Source: Candidatus Jordarchaeales archaeon
GTDB lineage: Archaea > Asgardarchaeota > Jordiarchaeia > Jordiarchaeales > Freyrarchaeaceae
NCBI GenBank assembly: GCA_038889235.1
Contig: JAWAHN010000001.1
Coordinates: 312,403 to 344,402 of the forward strand
Direction of reading: 5' to 3'
DNA length: 32,000 nucleotides
Shown here: positions 2,586-23,776 of the stretch, in pieces
Layout of the letters: every line of letters begins with the position of its first letter
Numbering within the stretch: the stretch's first letter is position 1
Notes under the pieces: generated by a model
Databases searched by the model: none
What the model was told of the DNA's origin: nothing
Seen by the model: the letters and a program-made list of their open reading frames with translations, nothing else
Translations under genes and position numbers: made by a program

Positions 2586-3603
2586 GGTTTCGCTCAAAAT
2601 ACTGAGGAGGCTTAGAAAGCTTATTGGCGTTTCGAGAATTACGAACATGCATTTTGCCTTGGCTCTTTCTATAAGTCTGGAAAAGCTTGGAGTCATCGAC
2701 TTTCTAAGGGAGCCAAGAAGTGTAGATGACGTCGCGTCGTTCATAGGGAACGTGAAGAGAGTGGATCTGTTAAGAAAGTTAATGAGTGTGCTTGAAGATG
2801 AAGGTGTGCTCGAGAGGGTTGATGAGCGCTATAAGGTTGACATGGCTCGGTTAGAGGTGCTTAAGGAGATGAGGGTTAAAAACCAGTATTTCAGGGATTT
2901 TGAGCCTTTAACTTCTGGGTTCGAGAGGGTAATGTATGAAGTGATGTTGGACGTGCTTAGGGGAAAGGAGTTTGACTTCGTATCTCCTGAAGTTGCAACA
3001 GTATTCTACTTCCAGAACGCCAGCCCACTGTACGCTTTCGGGAGAGAAATGTTGCTTGAGCTCGGCGGTGGAAAGAAACTTAAGGGAAGCAGAATTCTAG
3101 ATTTGGGCTGCGGCTTCGGAGCTGAACCGATAACCATACTGAACTACCTCGACTTCGACTGTCACCTGATATGCGCAGACTTTTTCCCAAACGTGGTTGA
3201 CGAGTGCATGCACACCATGGTGAAAGTTAACGGGCAGAATAAGCCACTTAAGGAACTGGAAAACGTCGAGTTTGTGATACTCGACCCGTCAATGGAGAAG
3301 AATTTCCCCATACCGGACGAACATGTAGACGCTGTCTTTTGCTTCGCGCTTCTCCACTGGAGTAAGCACCCAGACAAGATACTAAAGGAGTGCGCAAGGG
3401 TGCTAAAGAAAGGCGGGAAACTCATGGTGGTAACTCAGTTGAAGAAGGATGGTAGCCGGGTTACAGCAGCGGACGTAGCGCTTAAACTAATGGGGGGAAA
3501 CAAGTATTACACGAGAGGGGAAATGGAGAAATTCCTGCTGGAAGCCGGTTTCAAAGACTACACGATCTTCCTATCGCACATGATAGTAGCTGAAAAAGCA
3601 TGA
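2563..3603 (+). CDS. Class I SAM-dependent methyltransferase with N-terminal winged-helix/dimerisation domain
   Basis: Motif I ILDLGCGFG, VDAVFC..LLHW, and ARVLKKGGKLMVV. The N-terminal SVDDVA...LRKLMSVLEDEGVL segment is wHTH-like, as in O-methyltransferases. Confidence 0.9.
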   Translation: MSLEGKVKVSLKILRRLRKLIGVSRITNMHFALALSISLEKLGVIDFLREPRSVDDVASFIGNVKRVDLLRKLMSVLEDEGVLERVDERYKVDMARLEVLKEMRVKNQYFRDFEPLTSGFERVMYEVMLDVLRGKEFDFVSPEVATVFYFQNASPLYAFGREMLLELGGGKKLKGSRILDLGCGFGAEPITILNYLDFDCHLICADFFPNVVDECMHTMVKVNGQNKPLKELENVEFVILDPSMEKNFPIPDEHVDAVFCFALLHWSKHPDKILKECARVLKKGGKLMVVTQLKKDGSRVTAADVALKLMGGNKYYTRGEMEKFLLEAGFKDYTIFLSHMIVAEKA

Positions 3604-4108: not shown

Positions 4109-6512
4109 TTATACTTTGAATTTCACAGGTGGTGACCAGCCGGTGCAACACGTTGTCTTCGCTTGGTCTAGACTGCGTAAGCGTGAGCGGATGGCATAGG
4201 TCCCAGGAGAGAGATCGGTGATGGTGATGCGTAGATCGCGGATACCTTCTCGTATGGTTCTCCAGTCTCCGTCGCCCACTTGAAGTTGGACATCAAAGCC
4301 CACACCGTCAGGTGGAAGCAACGTACCTAGTTCTACTTCTACTTTGGCGCCTGTAATGGATACTATACGGTCAGGTATCTCTATGGTTCCCCGCATCCCG
4401 GAGACCATGTCACGGTATTCAAAGGTGCCGGCCCAAGGTATTTTTGTCCACCAAGTCTCTATGTAGTGTGAGCGCTTCCCTCTTATGAGCTGAGAGTCCC
4501 AAAGGTTTAAGCCGCTGGACTCGGTAACCGAGTGGTAATCTTCACCGACGTTGGTCCACTCGAAGCGGTCACCTATATTGCCCGTCACTCGCTCGGGTAT
4601 GAAGCCGTTATCTTGGATTATTATCTGGTGGGTGGGTGTTGGGTCAGGGGGGATAACTGGTAGTTCCAGCCATGAAAGATAGTCTGGTCCCGTATGGATA
4701 AAGGTATCCTTGCATTTTGGCGAGAACGACTGGTACATGGAACCTCTCAAAATGAGGGATGAAAGGAAAGAAAACAGTCTCCTACGAGAGTAAGCCTCGC
4801 CCTTTCGCTTGTAGGGACCACAGTGGATGGTTAGCCCAATGCGGTGGCCGGCCTTGAAGAGCATTGCTGTGGGCCAGATCTCGACGTCCACGGCCACGGG
4901 CACACCAGGAGTCAACCAATCGTTCCGTTTAAAGAGATAGAAAGGCTGATGAGGCTTAGAGCGCTCCGGGTCTAAAGCCCGCATGGACGCACGCAGCCAA
5001 CCACGGGTGACCGGTTCGTCGGGTGAGTCGGCGAAAACATAGCCAAAGCGCGTTTCACGCCCTTTTTCGTCGAAGTCGCGCACCTCGACTGTGAGATCTA
5101 CATCCTGGGAAAGTGTGGATATCCATAGGTGGGCGACTAATGGTCCTACTACGGCTATGTCTCGAGGTAAAGGTTCGGTTAAGAATGTAACCTGGCGGCT
5201 GCTCCCTGCCACCGGATCCTTGCGCCATTCTGCCTTCACGGAAGCGTTCTCGGTTGGTTCCTCAAATTTCAGAGTTCGGTCCCTGGCGTCCAGATACAGC
5301 TTAACCCACTGCGTATTCTCTAACGGCCAAGTATTCCCATAAACGTGAGTGAAAGTGTTTGACCCAGTGCGCAGGTGCACATCAACTGCTGGTTCCTTAT
5401 CGATGCCGGTGTCTACGCCCTTTAGGTAGTGGTCGAAGAATCTCAGCACCATGCGGTTGGCCCAAGGTTGGTAGGCAGAGCCCCAATGGGTTCCACTATA
5501 CAAGACTAACTTCTTCTTAGGGCTTCGTGCATGAACGAAGGCGTTAACGTTACCGCGGAGGTGTAAATCGGGATCTCCGAGGTTGCCCACTGAAAGCATA
5601 GGCACCTCGATGAGGTGGAGTGCGAGGATTCCTGGATTGTCGGGGCTTCGCCCGGACATGCCATATTCCCAGATCTCGTCGAAGTAAGGATGAGTGAGTA
5701 GCATTTTCAGGTATTTCTTAGCAACAAAGGGGTTGTTAGCGATTAGTTGCAACATAACCCCGAAGAGGAAGCCGAACCTAGAAAGGATTCCGCCCCTGTA
5801 AGCGATATCCCTGTACGGGTCGGTGAGACCCTCCCAAGGAACAATGGCCTTTAGGTGTGGGGGATGTAATCCAGCTACCCAGTACTGGGACATGGCATAC
5901 CAAGAAATGCCAAACAGCCCGACGTTGCCGTTGCTCCACGGTTGGCTGGCCGCCCACTCGATAGCATCATAATAATCTCGGATCTCTTGGAAGTCTAGGG
6001 CACCTGTGCACCCCTGCGAGCCCCCATAGCCACTGGTATTAAAAGAGATATACACATATCCTCGCGGCACCCAGTAGTCTGGATTAGCCTGCTCAAATTG
6101 CTGAAATCTCGTTTTCACGCCCCCGTTATCATCAACGCCGGGCAGTACATTAAGGTAGCGCGGATAGGGAGCCTCAGCCATGATCACTGGAAATTTTCCT
6201 GGTGCATTAGGGCGGAAAATATCCCCACGCAGTTTCCTCCCATCTCGCACGGGGATTTCCACATTCTTTTCAAAAATCACGTCGTAAACTGGTTGGCTTA
6301 ACCCGTAATCATAGCGGCCGTCGTCTGGGCGTATGGAGAGAGGTGGGATAGAGGGGGAAGAAGGAAATCTGGCAGCAAGGAACCATTTGAGAAGCTTAAA
6401 AAAACGGCCACCACAAAAAAGACAGAATGTCTAATCCTAAACATAAAAGGCGTATCTTAACTGGACTGAAAGGGTATCCTTTGCGTTCTCCCCGCGATGC
6501 TTTCTTAAACAT
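4109..6512 (-). CDS. CocE/NonD family (S15-like) hydrolase with C-terminal cupredoxin-like and FN3-like domains; one frameshift near the 5' end (T7 run, 6398-6404)
   Basis: The main ORF 4109-6280 has VRDG..LRGDIFRP, WAASQPWSNGNVGLFGISWYAM and VTRGWLRAS. ATG at 6512 has a GGAGG SD. Removing one T gives a continuous 800-aa frame. Confidence 0.85.
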
Positions 6513-7086
6513 GCCTACCTCCCCCCGACAAAGCGCTCTCTTCCCTCCTTCCACACTTGAAATAAATTTGCACTACCCTCACTATTATATTTCTTTCGAC
6601 TCTTAGGAGGATCCTGTATCTACGTAAGCACATACAGCAAATTGTTTTTGAGAGTGGAGTATGTTTCTCATGTTTTTAATTTGTTCAGTGAAAAACGAAT
6701 CAAACAAGTTCAATATATGATTCGTTAAGGAAGCCATTTAACTTGAAGGAGTAGGCGTGTGTTTTTAAGGCAGAGCCGCGGCGAGTTACTAAGTAGCCCG
6801 GCATTGACGAGTTGCATTACAGCAGATTTTGTGGAATTGTTGCTTCAAGATTGCAGTGAGGAGGAGGGTTAAGGGGGCTTTCAGCGTAGCTGAGAAGTAA
6901 CGTAATTTGTAAGGCCAGCGAGCGATCTCTATGGTTTTTATGTCTGCAGTTAAAACTTGCTCGAACGGCTGAACAGGGGAGAGATTTGAGACATTATACG
7001 TTTAGCCACCGTGACGTTGCTGACAGCGATTATGTTTGAAAAACTATTTCATCTAAAAACTAAGTTTTTAAGTTGTAGATTGCAAG

Positions 7087-7668
7087 TCAGTTGAAGTACT
7101 TTTCGAGTTCGCCCTCTTTTTCAAGCTGGCGGAGCCAGTTTATTCTTCCAACGCGATACCTTTCCCCCATTCCAGAGATTATTTCCAGTACTTCTTTAGC
7201 CGACTCGTCCGGCGTTTTTAGCGTGGTGTCTACTTCGTAAACTTTCTCCCATCCGTATGCTTCGACAGCGTCGTAAGTGCACACCCCCAGTATTTCGGCT
7301 TGCACGTTTTCGCGGATCTTATTTTCGCTCCACCCTCTTTCGGCGAGCCGCCTCCACAACTCCCTTGGGTGCGTTCTCAAAACGACGGCTTCTTCAACCC
7401 AGTCATCCGGCATCACGTCGGCATAGTGTCCCTCAACAATAAGCCGGCCTCCGGCGTCGACCGCTAGGCGCTCTACTTCGGGCACCAGCTTCTCCACGTC
7501 GGCAATAAGGCTGCCCCTCTCCTCGTCGACTCCGAGAAAAAGTCCTTTCTCTTTGACGAGGTCGCCTAGGCTAACCCACCTAACCCCTGTCATCCTGGAA
7601 ACTATGCTGGCAAGCGTGGTTTTCCCCGTCCCCGGTGTGCCGCTGATCACTATTAGCTGTATTTCCAT
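7087..7668 (-). CDS. Adenylate kinase/ATPase, Fap7/AK6 (hCINAP) family
   Basis: P-loop GTPGTGKTT, hhhEGH motif (IVEGHY), LRTHP..L..RL.ERGW...KIRENVQAEILGVC. Confidence 0.92.
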   Translation of the reverse strand: MEIQLIVISGTPGTGKTTLASIVSRMTGVRWVSLGDLVKEKGLFLGVDEERGSLIADVEKLVPEVERLAVDAGGRLIVEGHYADVMPDDWVEEAVVLRTHPRELWRRLAERGWSENKIRENVQAEILGVCTYDAVEAYGWEKVYEVDTTLKTPDESAKEVLEIISGMGERYRVGRINWLRQLEKEGELEKYFN

Positions 7669-7804
7669 GTTAGTAGGCCTCCCGCCAGCGGGTGTGCCGA
7701 CAAGGAGTATGCACGATTATAAATGTTCTTCTCCTGGTGAAAAGATTTAAGGGATGTCTTACTCTTCTTATAAGGAGGTTTGTTTTGCGCGGGGAGGTGG
7801 ATGT

Positions 7805-9691: not shown

Positions 9692-9799
9692 AAGTAGAGG
9701 ATTGTAAGGAAACTAAACACTTCGGGGGTTTAAGAAAGGCCAAAAGTACCCGGTAAATTTTATAATCGCATCGCCGTTTTTTCTAACTTTTAGAAGTGG

Positions 9800-11239
9800 A
9801 TGGAGGGGTGTTGGACGAGCGGTCTCACGAGTAGTGTTGAAGTTCTAAAGTCTACTCTTGATAACAGGTTTGTGAGGTTTATGCTTAGGAGGTTTGTTGG
9901 ATGGTGCGAGAAGGATGGAGCAAGAAGGTTAAGGGTTGCGTTAGAGCTGTTTTCTGGTGTGAGGAGGAGCGCTTGTTACACTTGCAGCCATCTCGTGAGG
10001 CCTATTGTGGAGTGGGCTATTAAGAAAGGGGGTGAAGCTTTCGGAGTATCGGACGATGAGTTGAGAAGGCGTTTCCGCAACGCTTACTGGTGCACTGGTT
10101 TGATGGATGTCATTTTGGGGATAGCTAAGTTCGGAGTCAGGAAACCGTTTGTCCCAGGAGCACCTTTCCTAGTCGTTTGGGATTACACTTACGCGTGCAA
10201 CTTGAAGTGCAAGCACTGTTATGCTTCTGCAGGTGTACCATTGGAGGACGAAATGAACTTTGAGGAGAAGCTGCGTGTTGCGAGAAGCTTGGCAAACGCC
10301 GGGGTTACCGCTATAGCGTTCTCCGGCGGTGAGCCGCTTATCAAAAAAGACATATTCACCTTGATGAAGGAGCTAAGGGATATGGGGGTCTTCGTCGCTG
10401 TCGCCACCAATGGTACGCTCATAACAAGGGAGATGGCGAGGATGCTGAAGGAGGCTGGAGTCGGCTTTGTTCAAGTGAGCCTTGACGGCAGCGCACCAGA
10501 AGTGCACGACAACTTCAGGGGCGTGACTGGAGCTTACGAGAAGGCGCTCCAAGGCATAAAGAACTGCATTGAGGAGGGATTGTTCGTCGAAGTTTCAACC
10601 ACAGCGACGAAAATTAACTACGGCGAGATAAGTAGGATCGCAGACCTCTGCGAGGAGCTAGGCGTAAACTGGTACATGGTGTTCAACTTCGTACCGACAG
10701 GGAGAGGACGCTTCATAATCGAGAACGATTTAACTCCAGACGAGAGAGAAGAGCTTCTAACATATCTTTGGAAGAGGATGCGTAAAGGAGGAAAAGTAGA
10801 GTACCTTTCAACGGCCCCACAGTTTGCCAGAGTGGCACTCCAGCAGGAAGGGGATGTGAAGAAGATACCGGGGCATTTCTACAATCCTGAGCTGTACGGG
10901 CAGTTAGAGAGCCTCGGCGAGTTCATAGGTGGGTGTGGAGCCGGACGCATGTACGCGGCCCTAAAGCCGAACGGACTGCTTCAGCCATGCGTCTTTATGC
11001 CACTCACCGTTGGCAACTTGAGAGAAGACTCCTTCGAGGAACTCTGGAGCGAACACCCAGTTTTCGAAACACTCAGGGATAGGGATAGGCTTAAGGAGAA
11101 CTGTAGGTCTTGCCCCTACAGAGATTACTGCGGCGGATGCAGGGCGAGAGCTTATGGTTACTTTGGCGACATAACAGCTCCAGACCCCGGATGCGTAAGG
11201 AACAAGGAATTCTTCGAAGCCGTCAGAAAGATGAACTAA
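9800..11239 (+). CDS. Radical SAM/SPASM domain protein with N-terminal extension
   Basis: CNLKCKHC, FSGGEP, GCGAGR..PC and CRSCPYRDYCGGCRARA...DPGC. TTTATAA about 36 nt upstream. Confidence 0.93.
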   Translation: MEGCWTSGLTSSVEVLKSTLDNRFVRFMLRRFVGWCEKDGARRLRVALELFSGVRRSACYTCSHLVRPIVEWAIKKGGEAFGVSDDELRRRFRNAYWCTGLMDVILGIAKFGVRKPFVPGAPFLVVWDYTYACNLKCKHCYASAGVPLEDEMNFEEKLRVARSLANAGVTAIAFSGGEPLIKKDIFTLMKELRDMGVFVAVATNGTLITREMARMLKEAGVGFVQVSLDGSAPEVHDNFRGVTGAYEKALQGIKNCIEEGLFVEVSTTATKINYGEISRIADLCEELGVNWYMVFNFVPTGRGRFIIENDLTPDEREELLTYLWKRMRKGGKVEYLSTAPQFARVALQQEGDVKKIPGHFYNPELYGQLESLGEFIGGCGAGRMYAALKPNGLLQPCVFMPLTVGNLREDSFEELWSEHPVFETLRDRDRLKENCRSCPYRDYCGGCRARAYGYFGDITAPDPGCVRNKEFFEAVRKMN

Positions 11240-21456: not shown

Positions 21457-21678
21457 TTAAAAGGGGAGCCCTTGCCTCAATTTCTCGAGCTTCTTCTGCT
21501 TCTTTAACTCCTTCTTAACCTGTTTGTAGTGCTTTTCGCACAGGTAAACCCGTCTCCCGCTCGAGGACAGCGAGAAGCCAGCCTTGGGCGCGACGCCGGC
21601 CACCTCGTCCTGTGGTAAAGACCTAGCAGCGGGGGATTCGCAGCCCGCAACACTGCAGGAGCGCTTCACGAAAACCAT
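21457..21678 (-). CDS. Small conserved-type archaeal Zn-finger-like protein
   Basis: CSVAGC...RRVYLCEKHY then a Lys-rich helix; C-x4-C...C-x2-H ligand set. Confidence 0.75.
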   Translation of the reverse strand: MVFVKRSCSVAGCESPAARSLPQDEVAGVAPKAGFSLSSSGRRVYLCEKHYKQVKKELKKQKKLEKLRQGLPF

Positions 21679-21843: not shown

Positions 21844-22542
21844 TCACCTACCTGGCAGGTTTCTCCGCTCGCGGATGCTTCCAAGCATGTTCTTCAGCTC
21901 GAACCACTTCTTCTCGGCTTCATCGAAGGACATCAGCTTTTCAGCGAACTCCTCTTCACCCTCAAGGTAGAGGGCATAGGCTATAACTGCGACGTCGTAG
22001 CCGCCTAGTAGGTCCCTGTTCTTAGCTGCGGCTTCGTACGCCCCCCGGGGGTGGACGGCCACCATGTCCCTCCAGTTGGTCTCCCTTGTGTAGTCGCAGG
22101 TCAGCGTGAACTCGTATGGTCCACCCGGGTCCGCGAACTCGTGTGCGCTCAGCCAGGGTATCCTGGCGTTAAGCTTGACGGCGAGGTCGAAGAGATGCTT
22201 GTCGGAGAGACGCTTCACCAGGCTGCCGAAGACGTCGAGGAAGGCGCCAGCTTTTTCAGCGACACTGGAGCCCGGGAGGTCTTCATCGCTCGCCTTAACC
22301 AGTTCGTCCACCACCAGCCTACCCAGCTCTTCGGCTAGGGTGAGCACTCTTTCGAACTTCTCTTCTTCCACAGGGTTTCGCTTCCTAAGCTCCTCTAGGT
22401 CAACGGACCTAACGAGGTCGACGATCTCGCCACCGAGAAGCTCCCTAATTCTCTCCTCGTAGTCCTCGTCGACAAACCAGTCCCTGCTAGTCTTCCGCCT
22501 GCCACCTGCACGGCCCTCACTCATGGAAACCAGCCCCTGCAA
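21844..22542 (-). CDS. Hypothetical acidic helical protein
   Basis: 232-aa ORF with coding-like composition. A TATA box about 25 nt upstream of TTG 22542 would allow leaderless initiation; ATG 22524 is an alternative start. Confidence 0.75.
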   Translation of the reverse strand: MQGLVSMSEGRAGGRRKTSRDWFVDEDYEERIRELLGGEIVDLVRSVDLEELRKRNPVEEEKFERVLTLAEELGRLVVDELVKASDEDLPGSSVAEKAGAFLDVFGSLVKRLSDKHLFDLAVKLNARIPWLSAHEFADPGGPYEFTLTCDYTRETNWRDMVAVHPRGAYEAAAKNRDLLGGYDVAVIAYALYLEGEEEFAEKLMSFDEAEKKWFELKNMLGSIRERRNLPGR

Positions 22543-22585: not shown

Positions 22586-23563
22586 TCAACCCGGCTTCCC
22601 GGAGAGGGAGTCCACTCTGAAGTCGAAAACCTCCACCTCGCGCCGTCCATCTGTCAGAAGCAGTTTCTTGCCCGCCGTCACCTCTCCAACCACAGAGGCG
22701 GCCACCCCTCTATCCTCGAATATCTTAACACACTTGCCGGCGTTCTCCTGTCTGGAGGTTAAAACAACTCCGAACCCGGGGTAAGCCCTCACCCACCTCT
22801 CAATTTCAACCCCTCTAGGCGCGGGTATCGCTCTAACGTCGACTACGCCGCCGACGCCGCTCGCCTCAAGCATCATCGCCAGTGTTCCTATGATCCCCGG
22901 GTTGCTCACATCTTTCGCCGCAGTCGCCAGCCCGGCTTCTGCGATAGCCCACATCGAGGAGAGTCTCGCCCTCACCTCCCCAGGCGTCCTCCACAACGTG
23001 GTGTCCCAGGCATAGGGGAACCTCTCGTGGAACCTCCCGTCGACGTCGACGGCGAAGACTATCCTGTCCCCTGGGGAGGCGGTGTCGCTGAACACTACCT
23101 TACTCTTATCGACGAGACCGGCTACGGCGACGGAGAGCTCGTCGGACGGAGCGTCGGGTTGAAGGTGGCCTCCAACCACGGGAACGGAGAACTTCCTGCA
23201 ACCGTAGGAGAGCCCCTTGAGGAGGAGGGATGCTTTACCCCAGTCTCGCACGTTAAGCGAGTCTAGAAGGGCTACGGGGCGTCCCCCCTTAGATACTACG
23301 TCGTTAACGTTGACTAGCACAGAGCAGTAGCCGGCGAAGAACGGGTCGGAGTCCACTAGGACGTGCCACATGCTGTCGACGGCTAGGAGAAGGTACTCTC
23401 CCCACCCGACGTCGAGCACAGCAGCGTCCTCTCCAAAGCCTCGCACCACGAAGCTCGAAAACTCGAGCGTCTCCTTCAGGAGGGATGTAACTTTGCGGAT
23501 GTCCCTCTTGCGCGCCACGCCCTCGAAGCTCCTAACCGAGAGAGCTATAGATTCGATGTCCAA
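22586..23563 (-). CDS. AIR synthase-related (PurM/SelD superfamily) protein, methanogenesis marker 2/Sll0787-like
   Basis: GEDAAV, AGYCSVLVNVNDV..KGGRP, GGH, WDTT, KDVSNPGIIGTL and W...YPGFG. TTG start at 23563 after GGTGG; the longer ORF-track start would lie inside the tRNA. Confidence 0.85.
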   Translation of the reverse strand: MDIESIALSVRSFEGVARKRDIRKVTSLLKETLEFSSFVVRGFGEDAAVLDVGWGEYLLLAVDSMWHVLVDSDPFFAGYCSVLVNVNDVVSKGGRPVALLDSLNVRDWGKASLLLKGLSYGCRKFSVPVVGGHLQPDAPSDELSVAVAGLVDKSKVVFSDTASPGDRIVFAVDVDGRFHERFPYAWDTTLWRTPGEVRARLSSMWAIAEAGLATAAKDVSNPGIIGTLAMMLEASGVGGVVDVRAIPAPRGVEIERWVRAYPGFGVVLTSRQENAGKCVKIFEDRGVAASVVGEVTAGKKLLLTDGRREVEVFDFRVDSLSGKPG

Positions 23564-23592
23564 AAGCCCACCGTCCCTAGTTAGAACGAGAT

Positions 23593-23735
23593 TGGCGGCG
23601 GGCTGGGGGATTGCCGCCCGCAAGGGGCATCGAACCCCGAACCCTCACCGGGTTCCTCGGATCTCTCCTCTAGTTTGAAGTCCGAGGCAGGGGACTGGGC
23701 GGGGAATTAGGCCTCCACCCCCGCTGCAGCCCGCC
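23593..23735 (-). tRNA. selC: tRNA-Sec (anticodon UCA) with three introns (23714-23695, 23674-23663, 23628-23611)
   Basis: Spliced 93-nt product: GGCGGGCTG CA GCGGGGG TGGT CCCCTGC CTCGGA CTTCAAA TCCGAG GAACCC GGTGA GGGTTC GGGG TTCGATT CCCC CAGCCCGCC G CCA. It has a 9-bp acceptor, 7-bp D stem, 6-bp anticodon stem, long variable arm, 4-bp T stem, G73 and encoded CCA. Each intron forms a BHB/BHL motif with consistent cut sites. Confidence 0.93.
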
Positions 23736-23762: not shown

Positions 23763-23776
23763 CTTATAAACCCTTC
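23763..23776 (-). promoter_or_regulatory. BRE/TATA promoter of the tRNA-Sec transcript
   Basis: Minus strand GAAGGG-TTTATAAG ends 28 nt upstream of the mature tRNA 5' end. Confidence 0.7.

Follow-up and report, generated by a model that had tools for sequence, protein, structure and literature searches.

The marker 2 proteins of methanogens make up the family TIGR03267, which we take to have been defined by a phylogenetic profile of organisms that possess MCR together with other marker proteins. Their gene, mmp2, is often clustered with those for the methanogenesis marker proteins (MMPs) 3, 5, 6, 15 and 17, and no function was assigned to Mmp2 in a paper of 2026 (PMC12978539). A second system, the selenocysteine (Sec) locus of Asgard archaea, comprises the genes for EFSec, SepSecS, Sel_Asgard (NF045535) and tRNA-Sec, all of which recur in the loci compared here (Mariotti 2016, PMC4989117; Sun 2021, PMC9723677; ISME J 2024, PMC11227280; accessible portions of each). 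In those portions of the three papers no gene similar to aminoimidazole ribonucleotide (AIR) synthase or to marker 2 is named in the Sec locus, and the accessible text of PMC11227280 mentions, in the vicinity of the Sec genes, just a single hypothetical protein that is specific to Asgard archaea; a full-text literature search combining 'AIR synthase', selenocysteine and archaea found no paper. Here we analyzed a stretch of 32,000 nt from a Candidatus Jordarchaeales archaeon (contig JAWAHN010000001.1, positions 312,403 to 344,402; hereafter the window), in which a tRNA-Sec gene is followed by the gene for a marker-2-like enzyme of the PurM superfamily. Comparison of gene order across Asgard lineages shows that the predicted enzyme gene belongs to a conserved Asgard Sec-locus neighbourhood and did not come to lie there by a local accident. 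At a probability of roughly 40%, we favor the reading that the enzyme is an accessory of the Asgard Sec module and not a second selenophosphate synthetase.

A first-pass annotation of the window had described a TATA box, a tRNA-Sec gene, a 29-nt spacer and a TTG start with a Shine-Dalgarno sequence, without an obvious terminator in between, and each of these elements was recovered on the minus strand, as follows.

23764-23770, minus strand: TATA box TTTATAA, read from the sequence, preceding the 5' end of the tRNA by about 30 nt
23593-23735, minus strand: tRNA-Sec gene, 143 nt, with three introns and an encoded CCA end; anticodon TCA at 23676-23678
23695-23714, minus strand: D-loop intron, 20 nt, boundary uncertain by 1-2 nt
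23663-23674, minus strand: anticodon-loop intron at position 37/38, 12 nt
23611-23628, minus strand: T-loop intron, 18 nt, removal of which gives the T-loop TTCGATT
23564-23592, minus strand: spacer of 29 nt from the tRNA CCA end to the start codon, with no run of five T residues (T5) and no TATA-like element
23569-23572, minus strand: Shine-Dalgarno-like core GGTG, which can pair with the 16S rRNA 3' end (...GGATCACCTCCT)
22586-23563, minus strand: marker-2-like PurM-superfamily gene, 325 aa, TTG start at 23561-23563

The tRNA-Sec gene and the enzyme gene adjoin one another in all eight Jordarchaeales genomes that gave a tRNA match (orthologues of the tRNA were found in seven genomes related to the host), and in two Freyarchaeia genomes that seemingly lack the enzyme gene the contigs end exactly at that place. 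Three other genomes of the host family could be checked (loci L015, L016 and L017); in each, the tRNA precedes the enzyme gene on its strand at a distance of about 40-170 nt. In Freyarchaeia the two genes stand head-to-head, the tRNA being on the other strand, and the AT-rich stretch of about 150-250 nt between them has TATA-like elements; the head-to-head arrangement was also found in Atabeyarchaeia, in Helarchaeota Hel_GB_A and in family f30 (GTDB families are given as f numbers). The order in the Freyarchaeia, Atabeyarchaeia and Helarchaeota-type loci is EFSec, SepSecS, Sel_Asgard, tRNA-Sec on the opposite strand, and then the marker-2-like gene; the first three were recognised by profile hidden Markov model (HMM), Sel_Asgard as NF045535, at the Freyarchaeia, f7 and Atabeyarchaeia loci. 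By comparison of these orders, the ancestral Asgard arrangement is reconstructed as EFSec, SepSecS, Sel_Asgard, tRNA-Sec (opposite strand), marker-2-like gene and a small zinc-finger gene, here called c1. Hel_GB_B has the enzyme gene and SepSecS in convergent orientation, and in f7 the order is marker-2-like gene, zinc-finger gene, ModE-like gene, two opposite-strand genes, EFSec, SepSecS, Sel_Asgard and tRNA-Sec, with the enzyme gene and SepSecS spaced 3.7-4.0 kb apart on one contig in more than 30 f7 genomes. One f7 locus (L072, G015:C4, at 5819-7723 and 9748-10326) has genes for a ModE-like helix-turn-helix protein and a NapH-like 4Fe-4S membrane protein and a 138-aa gene between the marker-2-like gene and EFSec, and it has endA, the gene of the tRNA-splicing endonuclease, at 0.7 kb upstream of the marker-2-like gene. 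In the host genome the pair of tRNA-Sec and enzyme gene, which read in the same direction, stands 14.5 kb from EFSec-SepSecS.

Judged from these arrangements, the linkage of the enzyme to Sec genes is one that has outlasted at least three different rearrangements. A competing explanation is inherited synteny without any selenium function, by which the enzyme would do the job of methanogen marker 2, for example in maturing or activating redox enzymes of the Hdr or MCR type or at a cofactor step, and would sit in an ancestral Asgard block that has not yet been broken up. The unrelated genes guaA and ilvC and the zinc-finger gene, all in the same conserved block, speak for such an explanation. 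Linkage to the Sec cluster in several Asgard classes through that many rearrangements would, however, be unusual for functionally unrelated archaeal genes; and when the block was split in the host family, it was with the enzyme gene, and not with SepSecS, that tRNA-Sec remained.

The distribution of the enzyme was determined in 301 Asgard genomes from 30 GTDB families, at thresholds of E <= 1e-40 for the marker-2-like gene and E <= 1e-60 for SepSecS. Both genes were present in nine families (f1, f2, f7, f9, f13, f16, f23, f28 and f30), neither in 17, and the marker-2-like gene only in four (f8 and f15, both Baldrarchaeia; f12, in 19 of 19 genomes; and f18); there was no family with SepSecS only. 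A Fisher test at family level gave p = 5e-5, a value that is uncorrected for shared ancestry and hence overstated. SelD, nearly always with an in-frame TGA, tracked SepSecS exactly, except in the single f30 genome, which is 82% complete. Two further traits were compared as predictors: Mch, a marker of the tetrahydromethanopterin Wood-Ljungdahl pathway, agreed with the enzyme gene in 23 of the 30 families, and HdrB in about 19, so that Sec is the best of the three. If the co-occurrence with Sec reflected a shared lifestyle, as inherited synteny would have it, Asgard selenoproteins being mostly HdrA, MvhD and FrhA, one would point to the fact that every family with the enzyme gene also has Mch and HdrB, the traits being nested with Sec within marker 2 and marker 2 within Mch. 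Against this, seven Mch-positive and about ten HdrB-positive families are without the enzyme, and f23 has the enzyme gene and Sec with Mch in just two of its seven genomes. Wherever a Jordarchaeales genome is informative, the enzyme gene is adjacent to selC, as it is again in other Asgard classes, and the enzyme accompanies SepSecS in all nine Sec-using families, eight of which have canonical SelD; since the adjacency is conserved and the distribution correlates with Sec, the link to the Sec system that had been proposed at first pass is a reasonable hypothesis.

The enzyme itself was assigned to TIGR03267 (methanogenesis marker 2) with 370.7 bits against a cut-off of 365, residues 3-322 aligning with positions 2-322 of the 323-position profile; the margin is small, and the congeneric orthologues scored 361.5 and 343.4 bits, the latter from a truncated copy. 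Because the family profile matches from residue 3, the TTG at 23561-23563 can be fixed as the start, and orthologues begin with GTG or TTG at the equivalent site. The second-best HMM match was TIGR04049 (the sll0787 family; 288 bits, under its cut-off of 321.3), followed at a distance by ThiL (89.7 bits) and SelD (TIGR00476; 47 bits against a cut-off of 125, covering residues 35-170). With the sll0787/MSMEG_0567 families (TIGR04049, TIGR04050) the enzyme shares the fold class, but the score is below the cut-off and no MSMEG_0568-type radical SAM gene stands beside it in the window; among relatives, only L154 has one. The Pfam domains AIRS (PF00586) and AIRS_C (PF02769) were detected with E-values of 7e-20 and 4e-18, and the AlphaFold model had a mean predicted local distance difference test score of 96.4. 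A profile search of the PDB, which holds no solved structure for the enzyme's own family, returned ThiL as best match (78 bits), then PurM and PurL (about 70-75), SelD (about 54) and HypE (about 46), while Foldseek with the model placed ThiL, PurL, HypE and SelD all at E of about 1e-21 and PurM at about 1e-19. By its domains, its fold and its conserved Asp and His residues, the enzyme is a member of the PurM (AIR-synthase-related) superfamily. The nucleotide and metal motifs noted at first pass were located as NVND (residues 85-88), GGH (131-133) and DVS (218-220). In an alignment of 60 sequences 19 positions were invariant, including K19, D46, D88, H133, D173, K217, D218 and S220, and none of the 19 was a Cys. 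Because every catalytic-type residue that is invariant in the family is retained, the enzyme should, by analogy with ThiL, PurM, PurL, HypE and SelD, use ATP to phosphorylate and thereby activate a nucleophile.

The first-pass annotation had gone further and suggested a non-canonical selenophosphate synthetase or another enzyme that activates selenium directly. What speaks for it is the superfamily shared with SelD (TIGR00476; PDB 2yye, 3u0o), including the fold and the Asp, His and Asp-x-Ser motifs, along with the Sec neighbourhood and the Sec co-occurrence. The (U/C)-x-x-K motif, absent already from the first description, was found nowhere in the 325 residues; where SelD has an N-terminal glycine-rich loop with Sec/Cys-x-x-Lys, the enzyme has the invariant Lys19, preceded by an Arg18 that is kept in at least 90% of the sequences, and no invariant Cys is available. 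The SelD profile scores far below its cut-off, so that the choice between TIGR03267 and SelD falls to the former, and by profile and by fold SelD is no nearer than ThiL, PurL, PurM or HypE. The genes for SelD and for the enzyme occur together in Sec-using genomes; because canonical, Sec-containing SelD is present in the host and in eight of the nine Sec-using families (the ninth being the single 82%-complete genome), there is no SelD gap for the enzyme to fill, and the enzyme is moreover found in Sec-less lineages. The SelD-like role was not supported, and we regard it as very improbable.

The host is a hot-spring Asgard archaeon of the order Jordarchaeales with a genome of 2.14 Mb that is 95% complete; its closest relatives are Candidatus Jordarchaeales archaeon JZ-1 bins_29 and Jordarchaeum sp. 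LHC_1308, and its sister family includes the complete Freyarchaeota chromosome CP147778. Judged by its genes, it is a selenocysteine user: we found SepSecS (497.6 bits) with EFSec directly upstream, SepCysS, a PSTK-like gene (192 bits, below the 290.5-bit cut-off) and canonical SelD at C1:553189-554101, whose in-frame TGA gives the N-terminus G-U(TGA)-A-C-K. A hairpin insert of about 31 nt, placed directly behind ...SDVY (ACACAGCC...GGCTGTGT), splits the SelD gene into two frames and looks like a tRNA-type intron; the relatives show one TGA and one TAA within the same gene, which suggests that the insert is conserved in Jordarchaeales. A Sel_Asgard-like gene lies at C1:349170-349682 on the minus strand (84.6 bits against a cut-off of 132), divergent from EFSec; it contains a single in-frame TGA and may either encode a selenoprotein or be interrupted. 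The 95%-complete genome yielded no mcrA, Mmp3 or Mmp17, and the Mmp15 profile gave only a generic ATPase match (135 bits). Since it is without mcrA, Mmp3 and Mmp17, the host is not a methanogen, and the view of the first-pass annotation that a marker-2-type PurM-superfamily protein occurs here outside methanogens was borne out. Membership of the enzyme in an MCR-activation set in the host was rejected on the same absences, which also argue against the inherited job being one tied to these MCR-associated partners.

To the Mmp2 proteins of TIGR03267 the enzyme is alike in its full-length match above cut-off, its architecture of AIRS and AIRS_C, its length and the 19 invariant positions; it differs in that its host lies outside the defining MCR profile, in that it branches outside the clade of methanogens and anaerobic methanotrophic archaea (ANME), and in having Sec genes as neighbours, not Mmp3, HdrCB or MtxX. 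In a maximum-likelihood tree of 105 sequences (quick method, midpoint root), an Asgard type-1 clade comprised Jordarchaeales, Atabeyarchaeia with f18, Baldrarchaeia and the Helarchaeota-type sequences (94 in the Shimodaira-Hasegawa-like approximate likelihood ratio test), and a more divergent type-2 clade comprised f7, f9, f23, f12 and the second f16 copy; Sec-linked members occur in both types. Neighbour clustering of 64 methanogen and ANME loci yielded no neighbour conserved across orders. In two Methanothermococcus loci (L104 at 2773-3525 and L115 at 1154-1900) mmp2 has a PSTK homologue 4.5-6 kb away, while two other loci of the genus have HdrCB there, and the presence of the homologue near mmp2 is probably a coincidence. 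In Asgard families that are Sec-less or have the gene unlinked from Sec genes, the neighbours are heterogeneous and include Nuo/Mbh-like, luciferase-like and MtrH-like genes. Marker 2 is thus a widespread and highly conserved orphan enzyme family whose only neighbourhood conserved across classes is the Asgard Sec locus.

Several observations weigh against a role as an accessory of the Sec module. The gene is kept by the four Sec-less Asgard families f8, f15, f12 and f18, and orthologues occur in all sampled methanogens, ANME and alkane oxidisers, which form a 62-row clade sister to Asgard type 1. The 19 positions are invariant across Asgard and methanogen sequences alike, for which reason one shared chemistry that is not specific to Sec can be argued. 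Among methanogens, the neighbours are Mmp3 in Methanobacteriales, HdrC/HdrB in Methanothermococcus and others, and MtxX in Methanomicrobiales (in line also with PMC12978539). The enzyme gene is unlinked from Sec genes in f9, f16 and f23, which use Sec; the conserved synteny of Jordarchaeales takes in guaA, so that adjacency at the level of the order is by itself weak evidence; and c1 occurs in 214 of the 301 Asgard genomes, including those of the Sec-less families f3, f4 and f21. A purely historical explanation stays alive because Sec-less Asgard families and methanogens have the gene with identical catalytic residues and because of the three families in which it is unlinked; we consider inherited synteny quite possible.

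For the enzyme as a Sec accessory, the version that fits best is the handling of sulfur or selenium, because methanogens without Sec have the identical catalytic residues. In this version the enzyme would act, dependent on ATP, on a reduced sulfur or selenium species or on its carrier, upstream of SelD and SepSecS, a specific proposal that we think rather unlikely. Extended to the marker 2 family as a whole, as an ATP-dependent enzyme that would activate or pass on a chalcogen in reduced form, be it sulfide, selenide or bound to a carrier, it is more speculative still and in our estimate unlikely. If it were true, a chalcogen-handling marker 2 would be an unrecognised sixth component of the Asgard archaeal/eukaryal-type selenocysteine pathway, and the same activity would explain why the orthologue is retained in every sulfide-assimilating methanogen. 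The locus in this way offers a testable lead in both directions: it suggests a further candidate factor by which the archaeal relatives of eukaryotes may make Sec, and it gives a functional hint for methanogen Mmp2.

Downstream of the enzyme gene, the window carries two further genes.

21844-22542, minus strand: open reading frame (ORF) of 232 aa, matching no Pfam or NCBIfam family, between the marker-2-like and zinc-finger genes
21457-21678, minus strand: basic CCCH zinc-finger protein c1, 73 aa, from neighbour clustering and alignment

The orthologues of c1 are 72-90 aa long, with invariant C8, C13, C47 and H50 and a Lys-rich tail, and c1 may bind nucleic acid; family searches with c1 matched no known family. 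Its gene follows the marker-2-like gene immediately in Freyarchaeia, Atabeyarchaeia and f7, and adjoins the enzyme gene in Sec-using lineages only; in f9, where the enzyme gene has been relocated, all four c1 copies listed lie 1.8-4.6 kb from SepSecS. Together with the tRNA-Sec gene, which is the tightest and most widespread neighbour of the enzyme gene, head-to-head or in tandem, this arrangement brings up the possibility that the substrate of the enzyme is tRNA-Sec, free or aminoacylated, in which it might, for example, use ATP to activate a base or the serine or phosphoserine (Ser/Sep) moiety, with c1 as a partner that might bind RNA. PurM-type phosphorylation of a carbonyl oxygen would, by inference, suit nucleobase modification. 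Orthologues with identical invariant residues are nonetheless present in organisms that have no tRNA-Sec, neither Pfam nor the AlphaFold model gave a recognisable RNA-binding domain in the enzyme, and the breadth of c1 among Sec-less families speaks against this possibility as well, leaving an action on the tRNA quite improbable in our view. On that same breadth, c1 was rejected as a Sec-specific partner. Additional c1 copies were noted at L074:7716-8132, L072:7776-7997 and L075:4247-4519. The 232-aa ORF is genus-specific, being present in the window and in L081, with other genes in its place in L083; it was considered as the Sel_Asgard protein and rejected, as it has no NCBIfam match and the Sel_Asgard-like gene is the one at C1:349170-349682.

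The tRNA-Sec gene is interrupted by three inserts, and because of them ARAGORN and an Rfam gathering scan of the raw window both missed it; even with introns allowed, ARAGORN made nothing of the unspliced gene but spurious Gly and Val calls of low score. When the three inserts were cut out, the resulting 93-nt RNA was called tRNA-SeC(tca) by ARAGORN, and its minimum-energy fold was the archaeal/eukaryal 9/4 cloverleaf (Rfam RF01852) with the UCA anticodon that characterizes the class; its D, anticodon and T stems measure 7, 6 and 4 bp, respectively, and its variable arm is long. The ends of the unspliced RNA pair as a perfect 9-bp acceptor stem, followed by G-CCA, and removal of the D-loop intron restores a TGGT D-loop, as in the intron-less Asgard tRNA-Sec genes. 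The acceptor stem is 9 bp throughout, GGCGGGCTG/CAGCCCGCC here as against GGCGGACTG/CAGTCCGCC in Freyarchaeia, GGCGCCCGA/TCGGGCGCC in Atabeyarchaeia and GGCGACCTG/CAGGTCGCC in Helarchaeota; read as compensatory changes, these differences among lineages confirm the tRNA assignment. The anticodon loop CTTCAAA is uninterrupted in the Freyarchaeia, Atabeyarchaeia and Helarchaeota-type orthologues, and the Helarchaeota-type genes, with zero inserts, are called directly by ARAGORN. A pattern search recovered Atabeyarchaeia tRNA-Sec genes of 178-179 nt at L075 5758-5936 and L078 5287-5464 (both plus strand), whose D-loop, variable arm and T-loop all carry inserts.

The tRNA-Sec itself is not new, because it has been reported, in the accessible portions of these papers, for the congeneric metagenome-assembled genome (MAG) Jordarchaeum LHC_1308 (PMC9723677) and for Freyarchaeia and Atabeyarchaeia (PMC11291895). 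Introns are stated in the available part of the latter paper to occur in 92-95% of the tRNA genes of Freyarchaeia and Atabeyarchaeia. The gene in the window resembles the multi-intron tRNA genes of these lineages (PMC11291895) and of Thermoproteales in carrying several introns per gene at non-canonical D-loop and T-loop positions, and differs from them in that the interrupted gene is tRNA-Sec, so that standard detectors fail. An intron-laden tRNA-Sec gene is invisible to standard tRNA and Rfam scans, and automatic annotation would therefore miss the locus.

The TATA box at 23764-23770 probably drives the transcription of tRNA-Sec and also, in this genome, that of the enzyme gene downstream; TTTATAA was found at an equal distance from tRNA-Sec in L015, L016 and L017. 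Given the spacer, which contains neither a T5 run nor a TATA-like element, the enzyme gene is probably expressed in this genome by read-through from the tRNA-Sec promoter, and the enzyme mRNA would then be released by 3' end-processing of the tRNA. To this extent the co-transcription put forward in the first-pass annotation stands for the window, but it is not conserved: in two congeneric genomes the CCA end is followed after 4-9 nt by runs of T6 and T5, which count against read-through, the sister genus has a 170-nt spacer between tRNA-Sec and the enzyme gene, and all lineages outside the host family have tRNA-Sec on the opposite strand from the enzyme gene. Compared across these genomes, the predicted read-through, which is plausible in this genus only, is a genus-level accident and not a conserved design.

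For four of the records used in these comparisons (L098, DATKTP010000192.1; L083, JAPDJY010000019.1; L100, DYFG01000100.1; L084, JAGGSW010000076.1) the titles are at odds with the content. Asgard Sec loci are found under the titles 'Deferrimicrobium sp.' and 'Thermoproteota archaeon', a Methanophagales-type mmp2 is found under 'Nitrosotalea sp.', and an 'Odinarchaeota' MAG groups with Baldrarchaeia; these mismatches are probably errors of binning or naming.

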